Below, one piece after another: positions 1-34,272 of a DNA stretch of 64,000 nt. The DNA is taken from contig JAHCIT010000008.1 of the NCBI GenBank assembly GCA_026129095.1, forward strand, positions 7,021 to 71,020. Direction: 5' to 3'. The notes beneath the pieces are model-generated. The model worked only from the letters and a program-made list of their open reading frames with translations, was not told where the DNA came from and did not search any database. How positions within the stretch are numbered: the first letter of the stretch is position 1; the number at the start of each line of letters is the position of its first letter. This stretch comes from Deltaproteobacteria bacterium (GTDB taxonomy: Bacteria; JAGRBM01; JAHCIT01). The translations under genes and the position numbers were made by a program.

Positions 1-1107
1 GTGGTGGGGTTTGGCGCTGGCGAGCCCGATTTCGACACGCCCGACCACATCAAGCAGGCAGCCAAGACCGCGCTCGACAAGGGGCAGACCAAATACACCC
101 CGGTCGGCGGCACGAAGGAACTGAAGGAAACCGTCTGCGCCAAGTTCAGGCGGGACTACGGCCTCGACTACACGCCGGCCGAAATCCTGATCTCGGTGGG
201 CGGCAAGCACTCGCTGTTCAACATCTTCATGGCACTGGTGGAGGAAGGCGACGAGGTCATCATCCCCGCCCCGTACTGGGTGAGTTACCCGGAGATGGTC
301 GCCTTCTGCGGCGGAACGCCGGTCTGCGTGCCCACGAAGGAGTCGAACGGCTTCTGCATGACCCCGGCGGAACTGGAAGCGGCCATCACGCCAAGGACGA
401 AGATCTTCATCCTCAACTCGCCATCGAACCCGACTGGCGGCATGTACAGCGAGGAGCATATCCGCGCCCTGGCAGCGGTGCTCGAAAAGCACCCGGACAT
501 CTGGATCGTGTCGGACGACATCTACGAGAAGCTCACCTATGACGGGATGAGGTTCTTTTCCATCGCGACGATCTCGCCCGCATGGAAGGCCCGCACCATC
601 GTCTGCAACGGCATGAGCAAGGCCTATTCCATGACCGGGTGGCGGATCGGCTTCACCGCCGCGCCAAAAGACCTGACCTCCGCCATGGACACGATCCAGG
701 GTCAGTCCACCTCGAACCCCACGTCGATCGCACAGGCGGCCTCGGTCGCCGGCCTCAGCGGCGACCATTCGTTCCTCACCGCCTGGGTGGCGGAGTTCGA
801 CAGGCGCCGCCGCTATATCGTCGAGCGGCTGAACCGGATTCCCGGCATCTCGTGCTTCACGCCGAAGGGGGCCTTCTACGCCTTCCCGAACATCTCCGGG
901 CTGCTTGGCAAGAAGACCCCGTCGGGCAAGACGCTCACCGATTCGATGGGCGTGGCCGCCTGGCTGATCGAGGAGCACAACGTCGCCGTCGTGCCCGGCG
1001 CGCCATTCGGCGCCGAGGGGTTCATGCGGCTTTCCTACGCCACGTCAATGGAGCAGATCACCAAGGGGCTCGACCGGATCGAGACGGCCGCCAAATCCCT
1101 GAAGTAG
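1..1107 (+). CDS. class I PLP-dependent aminotransferase (aspartate/aromatic aminotransferase-like), 5' end outside window
   Basis: ORF track 1..1107; motifs NSPSNPTG and SKAYSMTGWRIGF typical of fold-type I aminotransferases; frame open to base 1; TAG stop at 1105-1107. Confidence 0.85.
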   Translation: MVGFGAGEPDFDTPDHIKQAAKTALDKGQTKYTPVGGTKELKETVCAKFRRDYGLDYTPAEILISVGGKHSLFNIFMALVEEGDEVIIPAPYWVSYPEMVAFCGGTPVCVPTKESNGFCMTPAELEAAITPRTKIFILNSPSNPTGGMYSEEHIRALAAVLEKHPDIWIVSDDIYEKLTYDGMRFFSIATISPAWKARTIVCNGMSKAYSMTGWRIGFTAAPKDLTSAMDTIQGQSTSNPTSIAQAASVAGLSGDHSFLTAWVAEFDRRRRYIVERLNRIPGISCFTPKGAFYAFPNISGLLGKKTPSGKTLTDSMGVAAWLIEEHNVAVVPGAPFGAEGFMRLSYATSMEQITKGLDRIETAAKSLK

Positions 1108-1177: not shown

Positions 1178-2755
1178 CTAGTCCCTCAGGTTCCCGTTCT
1201 TCCGGAGGAAGGCGGGAACGTCGAGGTTCGCCATGTCGATCGACGGTCCCGTGAACCGCCGCCGGGCGGGCGGAGGCTGGGACGTGCCGGCGGCCGGAGC
1301 CACCCGCGTCTGGGTCGAATCGAGATCGCGGGCCGTATCGTCCTGCGCGGCCAGCGACTCCCTCGGGTTCGGCGTCACCCGGGTCATCTCGCCGTTGGGC
1401 ATGGTGAGCCGGATCGAGGGTGGCGGGGGCGGCGTGGTCATCACCGTCGCGCCGGGATTTACGCCGTTCCAGCTCTGCGAGGCGGCATAGACACGCTGGC
1501 TGCGGTCCACGGCCGGTATGGGCGCCGTGATGGCCTGCCGGCCGGTCACTTCCGGCTGCGGCTGCGCTGCCGTCACGAAACCCGTCGCCACCACCGTCAC
1601 GCGCACCCATTCGCCCATCGAGTCGTCGATCACCGTGCCAACGATGATGTTCGCCTCGTCGTGGGCGGCCTTCTGGATGAGCGAGGTCACTTCGTCCAGC
1701 TCCGACAGCGCGAAGTCGGACGAGCCGGTGACGTTGATCAGGACTCCCGTCGCGCCGTGGATCGAAACCTCGTCCAGCAGCGGCGAATTGACGGCCATGC
1801 GCGCCGCCTCAACCGCCCGGTCCTCGCCCTTGGCCATTCCGGTTCCCATGAGCGCCAGGCCCGCGCCCTGCATGATCGTCCGGACGTCGGCGAAGTCTAC
1901 GTTCACCAGACCGCTCTCGGTCACGATGTCCGCGATTCCCTTGACCGCCTGGCCGAGCACCTCGTCGGCCTTCTGGAAGGCGCTCTTCATGGTCATCTTC
2001 ATTCCGGCCAGCGCCAGGAGGCGCGAGTTCGGAATTGTGACGAGTGCGTCCACCGACTGTCTCAGTTCGGCGATGCCCGCCTCGGCGTGCCGCGCACGGG
2101 GCTTGCCCTCGAACGGGAACGGCCGGGTGACCACGCCCACGGTGAGCGCGCCGCACTCGCGGGCAATCTGGGCGATCACCGGCGCCGCGCCGGTGCCGGT
2201 CCCGCCCCCCATGCCGGCGGTGACGAACACCATGTCGGCGCCTTCGATGGAGGCCCGGAGCCGCTCGCGGTCCTCAAGGGCCGCCTGGCGTCCCACGTCC
2301 GGGCGCGCACCGGCCCCGAGGCCCCGCGTGCAGTCACGCCCGATCTGGACCCGCACCTTGGCCAGCGAGCGTTCGAGCGCCTGGAGGTCGGTATTGGCAG
2401 AAATGAAATCAACACAGTGGATGTTGCCGCCCGCCACCATCGAGTTGAGGGCGTTGCAGCCTGCGCCGCCCACGCCGATCACCTTGATCTTCACCATGTG
2501 TCCGGCCTGCGGCTCGGTGTCCTCGAACTGGAATGACCGTGCCGGAGCGGGCGGAGATTTCGGCTCCACTGGCGCCGCCCCAGATGCCGGGGAAGCGGCC
2601 ACCGCCATCGGTCCCGTGACATCCTCGATCACCTCGACCTCCTCGAACTCGTCCCCGGAATCCTCCAGGGTGCCGGCCTCCTCGGCCGGATGCGGGAAAT
2701 CGAGACTCAGGTTGCCCGCCGTCTCTTCGTCCTCGAAATTGAACTTTTCCTTCAT
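1178..2755 (-). CDS. ftsZ: cell division GTPase FtsZ with acidic N-terminal extension
   Basis: 525 aa; tubulin-like motifs VIGVGGAGCNA and GMGGGTGTGAAPV; C-terminal peptide DVPAFLRKN; ATG at 2753-2755 with GGAG 9 nt upstream; canonical N-terminal FQFED only at residues 75-79. Confidence 0.93.
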   Translation of the reverse strand: MKEKFNFEDEETAGNLSLDFPHPAEEAGTLEDSGDEFEEVEVIEDVTGPMAVAASPASGAAPVEPKSPPAPARSFQFEDTEPQAGHMVKIKVIGVGGAGCNALNSMVAGGNIHCVDFISANTDLQALERSLAKVRVQIGRDCTRGLGAGARPDVGRQAALEDRERLRASIEGADMVFVTAGMGGGTGTGAAPVIAQIARECGALTVGVVTRPFPFEGKPRARHAEAGIAELRQSVDALVTIPNSRLLALAGMKMTMKSAFQKADEVLGQAVKGIADIVTESGLVNVDFADVRTIMQGAGLALMGTGMAKGEDRAVEAARMAVNSPLLDEVSIHGATGVLINVTGSSDFALSELDEVTSLIQKAAHDEANIIVGTVIDDSMGEWVRVTVVATGFVTAAQPQPEVTGRQAITAPIPAVDRSQRVYAASQSWNGVNPGATVMTTPPPPPSIRLTMPNGEMTRVTPNPRESLAAQDDTARDLDSTQTRVAPAAGTSQPPPARRRFTGPSIDMANLDVPAFLRKNGNLRD

Positions 2756-2866
2756 CGCACTTTACTCCACGGTCCGGCTTGGTCTGCTGGGCGCCGTCCC
2801 CTGCCCGCCCTCGGTAATACCCGCCATCCGCGCCGGAACTCCCCAGCCCCGCACGGACAAATGAGA

Positions 2867-4096
2867 TCAGAAGAACTCGGCAAACGTCTCCTTCATTCCC
2901 CGCGAGATCCGCGAGAAGAATCCGTCGCCACTGGCACGGTTGCGCGCCCCGAAATTGCGGTACTTGCTGCCATAGAGCACAAGCCCGATCGGCGTGGCGA
3001 ACCGGGGATCGTGGACCATGTCCACCAGCCCCCCGACGCCCGCCGGCTCGCCCACCCGCGCCGGCAGGTCGAGTATCTGCTCGGCAAGATCGGCGATGCC
3101 GGGCAGCGAGGCCGTGCCCCCCGTGATGACGACACCCGCCGCCAGCAGGTTCTTGAAGCCCGAGCGGATCAGCTCGCTGTCGATCAGGGTGAAGAGCTCG
3201 TCCACACGCGGCTCGATGATCTGCGCCAGTGTGCGGCGTTCCACCCGCCGGGGCGGACGGCCGCCGACGCCCGACACCTCGATCATCTCGTCGTCCCCAA
3301 CCATGAGGGCGCGCGCGCAGCCGTGCTGGAGCTTCACCTTCTCGGCCTCCTGGAGCGGCGTCCGCATGCCCTGGGCGACGTCCTTGGTGATGTGCGTGCC
3401 GGCGATCGGCACCACCGCCGTGTGGCGGATCGCGCCGTTCACGTAGATGGCGATGTCGCAGGTGCCGCCGCCAATGTCGAACAGGGCCACGCCCAGTTCC
3501 TTTTCGTCCGGCGTCAGGACCGATTCGGCAGAGGCGATCTGCGTCAGCACGATGTCGGAGACATGGAGCCCGGACCGGTGGCAGCTTTTCATGATGTTCT
3601 GCACACTGGAGGCCAGCCCCGTGACCATGTGGACCTTCGCCTCCAGCCGCACGGCGCTCATCCCCAGCGGGTCGCGCACGTTGTCCTGGTCGTCCACGAT
3701 GAAGTCCTGCGGGAGAATGTGGACGATCTCCCGGTCCGCCGGGAGCGGCACGGCGCGGGCCGCTTCGACGACACGCTGGATGTCCACGTCCCGGACCTCG
3801 CCGTTCTTGACGGCAATGAGGCCCGTCGAATTGAACCCCTTGATGTGGGAGCCGGCGATGCCGGCGTAGACCGACTCCACCTTCACTCCCGACATGGTTT
3901 CCACCTCGTAGAGGGCGTGTTTGATCGCCTCGACGGTGTTCTCGATGTTGACGACCACGCCCCGCGAGAGGCCCCGCGAGGGCGCACTCCCGACGCCGAT
4001 CACTTCCAGCTCGTTGTCCCGGACCTCGGCCACCACGCAGCACACCTTCGTGGTGCCGATGTCGAGTCCCGCCAGGATCTCATCCCTTCTTGCCAT
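2867..4096 (-). CDS. ftsA: cell division protein FtsA (actin-like ATPase)
   Basis: 409 aa; N-terminal GLDIGTTKV and DIGGGTCDIAIY motifs; sits between ftsQ and ftsZ. Confidence 0.93.
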   Translation of the reverse strand: MARRDEILAGLDIGTTKVCCVVAEVRDNELEVIGVGSAPSRGLSRGVVVNIENTVEAIKHALYEVETMSGVKVESVYAGIAGSHIKGFNSTGLIAVKNGEVRDVDIQRVVEAARAVPLPADREIVHILPQDFIVDDQDNVRDPLGMSAVRLEAKVHMVTGLASSVQNIMKSCHRSGLHVSDIVLTQIASAESVLTPDEKELGVALFDIGGGTCDIAIYVNGAIRHTAVVPIAGTHITKDVAQGMRTPLQEAEKVKLQHGCARALMVGDDEMIEVSGVGGRPPRRVERRTLAQIIEPRVDELFTLIDSELIRSGFKNLLAAGVVITGGTASLPGIADLAEQILDLPARVGEPAGVGGLVDMVHDPRFATPIGLVLYGSKYRNFGARNRASGDGFFSRISRGMKETFAEFF

Positions 4097-5111: not shown

Positions 5112-6091
5112 CAGCGGCGTGTTCCTTCCTGCCCGGAATCGAGCTTGAGCGAGGCGAGGTCCAGTATCTGCTCGCAGAGAACAGGGAACGGAATACCCGC
5201 CTGCGCGGCGATCTTCGGCACCAGCGACAGCTCCGTGAGGCCCGGCAGCGTGTTCACTTCCAGCACGTAGTTCTCGAACGTGTCGGTGACGATGAAATCA
5301 ACCCGGGAAACCCCCTCGCAGGCGATCACCTTGCTGGCCACGATGGCGTCAGCCGACAGGCGGTGCTCCACGACCGGGTCCAGCGGTGCCGGGACAAGGT
5401 ATTTCGTCTCGCCCCTGGTGTACTTGGCCTTGTAGTCGTAGAACTCGCGGCGGGTGCGGATCTCGACAGTCCCGAGCGCCCGCTCGCCCAGCACGGCGAC
5501 GGCGATCTCGCGGCCTTTCACGTACTGCTCGACCAGCACCTTGCTGCTGTACCTGAACGCCGCGGCCAGTGCCGGGGCGAGTTTCGCCCGCGTCTTCACG
5601 ACCGAGACGCCCACCGACGAGCCCTCGTCATTGGGCTTGACGACCACGGGAAGCCCGAACGGGCTCTCAAAGCTCCTGAACGCCGCCGGCGCGGGGAACT
5701 GGCGGCGCTCCAGCTCGACGAACGGCGCCTCGGTGAGCCCCGCCGCCCGGAAGATCTTCTTGGCGGCCGACTTGTCCATGCTCATCGCCGAAGCCGCCAC
5801 ACCGGGGCCGGTATAGGGGACGCCGACGATCTCCAGAAGCCCCTGGACGCAGCCGTCCTCGCCGTATTTGCCGTGGAGGGCGTTGAACACCACATCAATC
5901 CGGTTCCTCACCAGCACCTGCGCGAGATCGCGCCCGGCATCGATCTCCGTCACCTGGTAGCCAAGCCCTTTCAGAGCCTTCGCCACGGCCTTCCCCGACC
6001 GGAAGGAAACGTCGCGTTCGCTGGACAGGCCGCCCATCAGTACGCCAACCCGCCTTTTCCGCCAGGGATGTTCCATTTTCTGTGCAGCCAT
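5111..6091 (-). CDS. ddl: D-alanine--D-alanine ligase
   Basis: 326 aa; ATP-grasp Ddl blocks (HGKYGEDG, LEVNTLPG); dcw position. Confidence 0.93.
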   Translation of the reverse strand: MAAQKMEHPWRKRRVGVLMGGLSSERDVSFRSGKAVAKALKGLGYQVTEIDAGRDLAQVLVRNRIDVVFNALHGKYGEDGCVQGLLEIVGVPYTGPGVAASAMSMDKSAAKKIFRAAGLTEAPFVELERRQFPAPAAFRSFESPFGLPVVVKPNDEGSSVGVSVVKTRAKLAPALAAAFRYSSKVLVEQYVKGREIAVAVLGERALGTVEIRTRREFYDYKAKYTRGETKYLVPAPLDPVVEHRLSADAIVASKVIACEGVSRVDFIVTDTFENYVLEVNTLPGLTELSLVPKIAAQAGIPFPVLCEQILDLASLKLDSGQEGTRR

Positions 6092-34196: not shown

Positions 34197-34272
34197 TGGT
34201 CGGGCTGGAGGGACTCGAACCCTCGACCTCTTGCTCCCGAAACAAGCGCGCTACCAACTGCGCTACAGCCCG
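34197..34272 (-). tRNA. tRNA-Pro (anticodon CGG)
   Basis: Minus-strand sequence CGGGCTG-TA-GCGC-AGTTGGTA-GCGC-G-CTTGT-TTCGGGA-GCAAG-AGGTC-GAGGG-TTCGAGT-CCCTC-CAGCCCG-A-CCA folds as a cloverleaf with a 7-bp acceptor stem, C1:G72 and encoded CCA. Confidence 0.93.

Follow-up and report, generated by a model that had tools for sequence, protein, structure and literature searches.

A conserved acidic N-terminal extension of FtsZ with a tip resembling the canonical N-terminal tail

The gene considered here is the ftsZ of a Deltaproteobacteria bacterium (GenBank assembly GCA_026129095.1), found in a 64,000-nucleotide stretch of contig JAHCIT010000008.1 (positions 7,021 to 71,020), hereafter "the window". 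Its reading frame opens with an acidic segment located ahead of the peptide with which FtsZs usually start. Unless the plus strand is indicated, all features given below lie on the minus strand of the window. The coding sequence (1178..2755; 525 residues plus stop) was delineated from the list of open reading frames (ORFs), from Pfam and from matches to FtsZs. It is the final gene of a cluster ordered murC-murB-ddl-ftsQ-ftsA-ftsZ, which places it directly after ftsA, as in the division and cell wall (dcw) cluster, and this order agrees with that of three Pfam-labelled syntenic loci from relatives (L001, L002 and L003). The protein has all of the defining features of an FtsZ that were tested. 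Pfam recognises a tubulin domain (PF00091, residues 89-249, E=1.4e-46) and an FtsZ_C domain (PF12327, residues 299-393, E=1e-33). The nucleotide-binding signature GGGTGTG is contained in GMGGGTGTGAAP at residues 181-192, invariant in a 120-sequence alignment, and the C-terminal conserved peptide D-[IV]-P-x-F-L-R is found after the linker as LDVPAFLRK (residues 511-519, within a C-terminal region read directly at 1181..1240). The protein is 100% identical to P0001 and has thousands of FtsZ matches. Two other long ORFs overlapping this region in antisense or in another frame, 1518..2864 (plus strand) and 2409..4043 (minus strand), are dismissed as high-GC (guanine plus cytosine) open frames, the FtsZ homology of the chosen frame being overwhelming.

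Relatives were found by a search of 5.8 billion proteins. Three of them are close (~75% identical) and are followed by a gap in similarity: among the matches listed, the other FtsZs align only from the core onward, and they share 49-60% identity with the window protein in full-length alignment. The nearest named ones belong to Myxococcota, Polyangia and "Deltaproteobacteria" (~50-58% identity, again in full-length alignment). The extension is present in four species, namely that of the window and the three relatives, which are uncultured metagenome-assembled genomes (MAGs).

The frame starts at ATG 2753..2755, read directly and the first possible in-frame start, a TAA being found two codons upstream. 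A Shine-Dalgarno-like GGAG (2765..2768, read directly) precedes it with a 9-nucleotide (nt) spacer; both had been given at these positions in a preliminary description made from the window alone. The N-terminal region starts with a conserved block 1 (residues 1-23, MKEKFNFEDEETAGNLSLDFPHP; 2687..2755), of which 17 residues are invariant in the four species, with the consensus M[KR]EKF[NK]FED.E..GNLSLDFP.P. Its segment F5-N-F-E-D9 (2729..2743) resembles the canonical core [LIF][EQ][FL][DE][DE] of FtsZ N-termini. After a short, variable acidic stretch, a conserved block 2 follows, about 15-20 residues beyond block 1 (residues 38-45, EEVEVIED; 2621..2644; consensus [ED]EVEVI[DE]D), in which E39, V40, E41, V42, I43 and D45 are invariant. 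Next comes a variable Pro/Ala-rich spacer (residues 46-70; 2546..2620), whose length changes by in-frame indels.

The spacer leads to the internal canonical peptide (residues 71-79, PARSFQFED; 2519..2545), with P71, A72, R73, F75 and F77 invariant in the clade. Its clade consensus PAR[SA]F[QD]F is separated by about 10 variable residues from IKVIGVGG, which starts at residue 90; in the window protein the alignment assigns residues 80-89 (2489..2518) to this variable link to strand S1. Residues 74-85 (S74-G85) read SFQFEDTEPQAG, followed by H86 and by MVKIKVIGVGGAG (M87-G99). The preliminary description had placed the usual N-terminal peptide only at residues 74-85, which the alignment bears out: F75-D79 occupies the [LIF][EQ][FL][DE][DE] columns of the 120 FtsZs and aligns with the M(AL)LEFD[DE] start of the 116 outgroup members. 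The 73 preceding residues are acidic and rich in Pro and Ala, as had also been described: 9 Pro and 11 Ala are present, and with 18 Asp+Glu and 4 Lys+Arg the net charge is -14 (-11 to -14 across the four species). AlphaFold2, run on the 120-sequence alignment of which only 4 sequences cover the extension, gives residues 1-88 a predicted local distance difference test (pLDDT) value of 48-61 without secondary structure, exceeds 90 in the core, and places the first strand at residues 90-95. The extension is thus predicted to be disordered.

Translation and distribution of the extension

The extension is very probably real, translated and conserved. The conserved ATG is the first possible in-frame start in all four species, and GGAG or GAGG precedes the equivalent ATG in L001, L002 and L003. 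An in-frame stop lies 2-3 codons upstream of it in the window, L001 and L003, while in L002 no stop interrupts the frame over 93 further codons, which include no ATG, GTG or TTG. In DNA of ~70% GC an open upstream frame is by itself weak evidence, as these additional codons of L002 illustrate; what decides is conservation across the species, measured by Nei-Gojobori counts of nonsynonymous (pN) and synonymous (pS) differences. Block 1 (residues 1-23) shows a pN of 0.07-0.18 against a pS ranging from 0.42 to saturation, and block 2 (counted over residues 37-46) a pN of 0.06-0.22 against a pS of 0.34-0.86. In the spacer (residues 47-70), pN is about equal to pS (0.37-0.80), and in the core (residues 90-395) pN is 0.03-0.07 for a pS of about 0.5. 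Judged from these counts, both blocks are under purifying selection, and the Pro/Ala spacer drifts but keeps the frame. In the extension, the three codon positions have GC contents of 0.72/0.47/0.77, a coding-like pattern that the remainder of the gene shares. Low pN and this GC pattern together indicate that the extension is translated and selected as a protein.

It is very improbable that the frame is merely open and that the protein really starts near the core, at M87 or a similar position. Such an artefact would find some support in the frequency of open frames at this GC content and in the public call of one relative, P0004 (L001 5920-6000, GCA_964565925.1), which starts at an internal ATG (MADMGADD...). 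The DNA of that locus, however, harbors MREKFKFEDAEELGNLSLDFP after an in-frame stop, in the same frame as the called start and 27 codons upstream of it, and the 27 missed codons encode the conserved MREKFKFED...GNLSLDFP start; the other two of the three relatives begin with MKEKF[KN]FED. M87, the only start that would remove the extension, is replaced by Q, V or H in the relatives. As previously described, the 10 codons preceding F75 include no ATG, GTG or TTG; GTG63 and ATG50 are the closest. Furthermore, conservation, low pN and in-frame indels all begin at the first ATG. Alignment with related taxa therefore upholds the extension proposed in the preliminary description: it is conserved, and none of the orthologous proteins has the internal Met as its start.

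The extension is restricted to this clade, as far as searches of sequence collections can tell. N-terminal extensions had been described as uncommon outside cyanobacterial and plastid FtsZs, and 116 of the 120 nearest FtsZs indeed have 10-24 residues before IKVIGVGG, opening with variants of M(AL)LEFD[DE]. The four clade members have 79-92 (with the P0004 start corrected). Their extension, of ~63-76 residues, precedes an otherwise complete FtsZ keeping its canonical peptide. A profile of the extension, run against 1.84 billion representative proteins, matched nothing beyond the representative of the clade itself (E=5.5e-32), and no homology to the cyanobacterial N-terminal region was found. 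Across 185,579 species genomes (one genome per species) the extension was found in three, all uncultured MAGs, one of which duplicates P0003. In Joint Genome Institute (JGI) metagenomes the motifs of the extension hit 600 pattern stretches, of which none was confirmed, and Pfam and PDB searches with the extension alone gave no match.

A close parallel is the N-terminal extension of cyanobacterial and plastid FtsZs (residues 2-51 in Anabaena, PMC6175996). It is likewise restricted to a lineage, tens of residues long, always attached to FtsZ and well conserved only within sub-clades. It is also often lost through mis-called starts: start-codon miscalls truncating cyanobacterial ftsZ have been described by Corrales-Guerrero et al. 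2018 (PMC6175996). In contrast, the extension of the present clade is strongly acidic, keeps the canonical peptide behind it and has a tip motif resembling the canonical N-terminal tail (N-tail), three features by which it is distinguished. The FtsZs that carry it are, moreover, closest to those of Myxococcota and "Deltaproteobacteria" and not to cyanobacterial ones. An FtsZ with a lineage-specific N-terminal extension is a modest variant and not a new kind of system.

Resemblance to the canonical N-terminal tail

The canonical N-tail (residues 1-10 in E. coli) is short and disordered, and its conserved Phe belongs to a hydrophobic-acidic motif. Both F75-D79 and F5-D9 carry this motif: the internal one aligns with it and lies at the usual distance of 13-14 residues before IKVIGVGG, while the tip displays the same signature at the extreme N-terminus. 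The arrangement differs from the canonical one in that the canonical peptide is not terminal here and the terminal look-alike is found ~85 residues away from the core. Canonical tails lie both at the extreme N-terminus and ~10-24 residues from S1, and neither clade copy combines the two: the internal copy is at the right distance from S1 but 74 residues from the N-terminus, whereas a distance of 85 residues separates the tip copy, which is terminal, from S1. The clade copies are likened to the canonical tail by sequence; interface contact and ZapA binding are known for the canonical one.

With a matrix built from the 116 canonical outgroup tails, the same two sites take the top ranks in all four species: the internal one and F-[NK]-F-E-D at residue 5. 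The former comes first in three species and the latter, at the tip, in L003; in the window protein the scores are 9.9 for the tip and 10.1 for the internal peptide. With shuffled extensions, an equally good match within the first eight positions has a p value of 0.004-0.046 per species, the four species not being independent. Among the 71,978 open-frame residues of the whole window (frames of at least 100 codons), the pattern F.F[ED][ED] is matched at two places, which are the two sites discussed here.

Several results weigh against reading the tip as a second N-tail. Both copies score 5-12 across the species, below typical tails (canonical median 17). Pairwise Smith-Waterman comparison of the two regions gives p values of 0.002-0.33, significant only in some species. 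Alignment by hhalign of the clade tip with 87 canonical N-termini finds the right register over 8 columns, at P=0.08. The AlphaFold2 model, computed on a single chain, offers no docking pose for either peptide. Finally, GNLSLDFP and block 2 are without counterpart in canonical tails, and the main function of the extension may be unrelated to N-tail activity.

As seen in the four sequences, the F-x-F-E-D resemblance is real, short (5-8 residues) and conserved, with moderate statistical support. The preliminary description had called the N-terminus a near duplicate of the conserved peptide: the conserved resemblance stands, but it covers these few residues only and the duplication is unproven, so that the claim was overstated. 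A longer duplication reaching into strand S1 (NLSLDF compared with KIKVIG) is unsupported, the hhalign result not being significant. Because synonymous sites are saturated, duplication is not separable from convergence. As for the origin of the added residues, the spacer between the ftsA stop and the ftsZ start measures 111-128 nt in the clade, against 24-138 nt in 3 outgroups. Since the clade value falls within the outgroup range, the extension looks like added coding DNA and not like a recruited spacer, a weak hint from three outgroups only.

Candidate functions

The FtsZ N-tail has been assigned several roles. In E. coli, residues 1-10 are essential and have been crosslinked to G20, N24 and K51 of the neighbouring subunit (PMC12137876). 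This tail competes with the T7-loop contact and promotes disassembly, acting as a cis element that loosens the longitudinal interface of the filament (Yin et al. 2025, PMC12137876), and its deletion also raises the assembly of B. subtilis and S. aureus FtsZs (PMC12137876). In the ZapA-FtsZ complex from Klebsiella pneumoniae, as resolved by cryo-electron microscopy, FtsZ residues 1-10 are sandwiched by two ZapA chains (Fujita et al. 2025, PMC12216130). The F2A mutation of the Klebsiella FtsZ abolishes ZapA binding, and Gram-positive FtsZs have a Phe at position 4 (PMC12216130). In Anabaena, the N-terminal extension alters the shape of the polymers (toroids versus straight bundles), and the interaction with SepF requires it (PMC6175996).

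By analogy with these systems, it is plausible that the extension alters polymerisation or partner binding, as the preliminary description had suggested. The explanation that we favour overall, with somewhat less than even confidence, is that of a conserved, clade-specific extension acting as a tethered, disordered regulatory tail on FtsZ; it is put forward because the tip shares the Phe-containing hydrophobic-acidic signature of the canonical N-tail. A specific mechanism can be sketched, although we regard it as doubtful. The tip would serve as a second, long-reach, N-tail-like Phe hook held on a leash, its potential targets being the adjacent subunit, an adjacent filament or a ZapA-like partner, while the acidic body would form a brush opposing lateral bundling. 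Together, hook and brush would tune Z-ring dynamics. Eukaryotic tubulins possess acidic, disordered Glu/Asp-rich C-terminal tails. These offer an analogy only, that of a disordered acidic tail that could project from the polymer and govern partners and lateral contacts; they are located at the opposite terminus and share no homology with the extension.

The main rival to the tethered-tail explanation is a docking tail for a lineage-specific positioning, membrane-anchoring or regulatory partner, bound via GNLSLDFP and/or EVEVIDD, in which case the F-x-F-E-D likeness would be coincidental and stem from the richness of the motif in acidic residues and Phe. We consider it possible, if on balance unlikely. 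It would account for invariant residues reaching well past F.FED (G14, N15, L16, S17, L18, D19, F20, P21 and P23, as well as E39-D45), and the statistics of the N-tail resemblance are only moderate. These proteins also have unusually many motifs in their C-terminal linker, which suggests several extra FtsZ partners, and the Anabaena extension with its SepF interaction provides a precedent. On the other hand, F5, F7, E8 and D9 do not vary among the four species, their place is the extreme N-terminus, as in canonical tails, and they form the only other F.F[ED][ED] in ~72,000 open-frame residues. Moreover, no candidate partner was identified.

A bolder proposal extends the hook idea and is, as a whole, put forward as quite unlikely. 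It holds that the clade carries a duplicated N-tail, whose tip copy, on its ~65-residue acidic leash, would act in trans, on adjacent subunits or filaments, while the internal copy would act in cis. The tip would engage the target of the canonical tail, be it the longitudinal-interface surface equivalent to K51 or ZapA, and changes in the core would have co-evolved with it. The T1 nucleotide-binding loop (residues 96-101; 2453-2470) reads GGAGCN in place of GGGGGN: A98 stands where 110 of the 116 outgroups have Gly, and C100 where 115 of them do. R129, which corresponds to E. coli K51 by our own numbering, is basic in the clade and S, A, N, H or T in the outgroups. There is overlap between these positions and the surface crosslinked by the E. 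coli N-tail. Were the trans reading true, the clade would provide a natural two-hook FtsZ separating the cis and trans activities of the intrinsically disordered stretch at the N-terminus.

Production of two isoforms is improbable. Translation would then start also, or mainly, from GTG42 or from a spacer Met (M50 here), the long form being a regulated minor species. A strong SD-like (Shine-Dalgarno-like) GAGGAGGTCGAGGTG (GGAGG; codons 38-42, 2630..2644) does lie 5 nt before GTG42, and both the SD-like sequence (at least GAGG) and a GTG at codon 42 or its equivalent are kept in the four species. Each spacer contains one or two Met, and L003 has a GGAGG 5 nt ahead of a spacer ATG. Yet GAG-GAG-GTC-GAG-GTG simply encodes EEVEV, and synonymous variation at V40, I43 and D45 shows selection at the protein level. 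Strong protein-level selection on block 1 implies that the long form must be made, and the spacer Met positions are unaligned, most of them without an SD. The sequence before GTG42 could drive internal initiation or ribosome pausing, or merely code for EEVEV.

Least credible of all is a membrane tether formed by an amphipathic helix at the N-terminus, as in Odinarchaeota FtsZ1 or some Mycoplasma FtsZs, which likewise place an extra functional element N-terminal to the globular core (PMC12583498) and give membrane-binding helices at this terminus a precedent: the clade extension is acidic (net charge -11 to -14) and non-helical (no helix predicted by AlphaFold2, and F5 and F7 spaced i, i+2), and the adjoining ftsA product has its own C-terminal amphipathic end (...GMKETFAEFF). 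Charge and the absence of a predicted helix speak against membrane-helix and secretion-signal readings of the extension alike.

Neighbouring elements and significance

In addition to the extension, other elements of the gene and of its upstream spacer are conserved in the four species. The ftsA-ftsZ spacer contains a stem-loop (CGGCGCCCAGCAGACCAAGCCGG; 2774..2796) immediately 5' of the Shine-Dalgarno sequence, with the consensus CGG[CT].CCCAGCAGACCAA.[GA]CCG. Its L001 copy is located at ~5873-5895 and shows one compensatory stem pair (C-G to U-A), and equivalents exist in L002 and L003. The loop is near-invariant in three of the four species, L002 differing at five loop positions. This candidate element could be involved in mRNA processing or in the regulation of ftsZ. 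Scans of window 2400-3300 for promoters and terminators found none.

FtsZ C-terminal linkers are usually hypervariable. That of the clade (residues ~396-505; 1241..1570) is unusually conserved, with a dN/dS ratio (nonsynonymous to synonymous substitution rates) of 0.16-0.47 in the four-species alignment and with the motifs APIPAVDR.QRVY, ATVMTTPPPP.S.R.TMPNGEMTR.TP.PRE, DLD.TQTRVA and GRRRF. AlphaFold2 pLDDT values rise up to 64-70 near residues 441-460, and conservation and pLDDT together suggest extra binding motifs or a small folded element. Within block 1, GNLSLDF (residues 14-20; 2696-2716) resembles the hexapeptide by which proteins bind the beta sliding clamp, QLxLx[LF], with N at the position of the initial Q.

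Directly after ftsZ, the window harbors a convergent aminotransferase ORF (1-1107, plus strand). The synteny of the relatives differs at this place: downstream of ftsZ, L001, L002 and L003 carry rsmD-like (PF03602) and coaD-like (PF01467) genes before the aminotransferase. Farther away, the region 20000-64000 encodes TPR proteins, a carbamoyltransferase, a myo-inositol-1-phosphate synthase, a GAF-HD protein, a type II/IV secretion ATPase, a phosphate-selective porin and a B12-binding radical SAM protein. This gene content points to a diderm, non-cyanobacterial organism. A tRNA-Pro (CGG) at 34197-34272 is the only tRNA found in Rfam and tRNA scans, and the Rfam scan of the window found no rRNA.

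The practical value of these observations is limited, as the lineage is uncultured and four sequences are known. After cyanobacteria, this is nevertheless a second bacterial lineage in which an N-terminal extension of FtsZ is conserved, and the case shows again that gene callers truncate such extensions. The FtsZ N-tail has long been ignored, until work published in 2025 established it as an essential disassembly element in E. coli and as the hook for ZapA. The FtsZ of this clade keeps that tail behind a conserved acidic leash, the tip of which looks like a second tail. It therefore constitutes a natural construct for asking whether the N-tail must be terminal and whether it acts only in cis.

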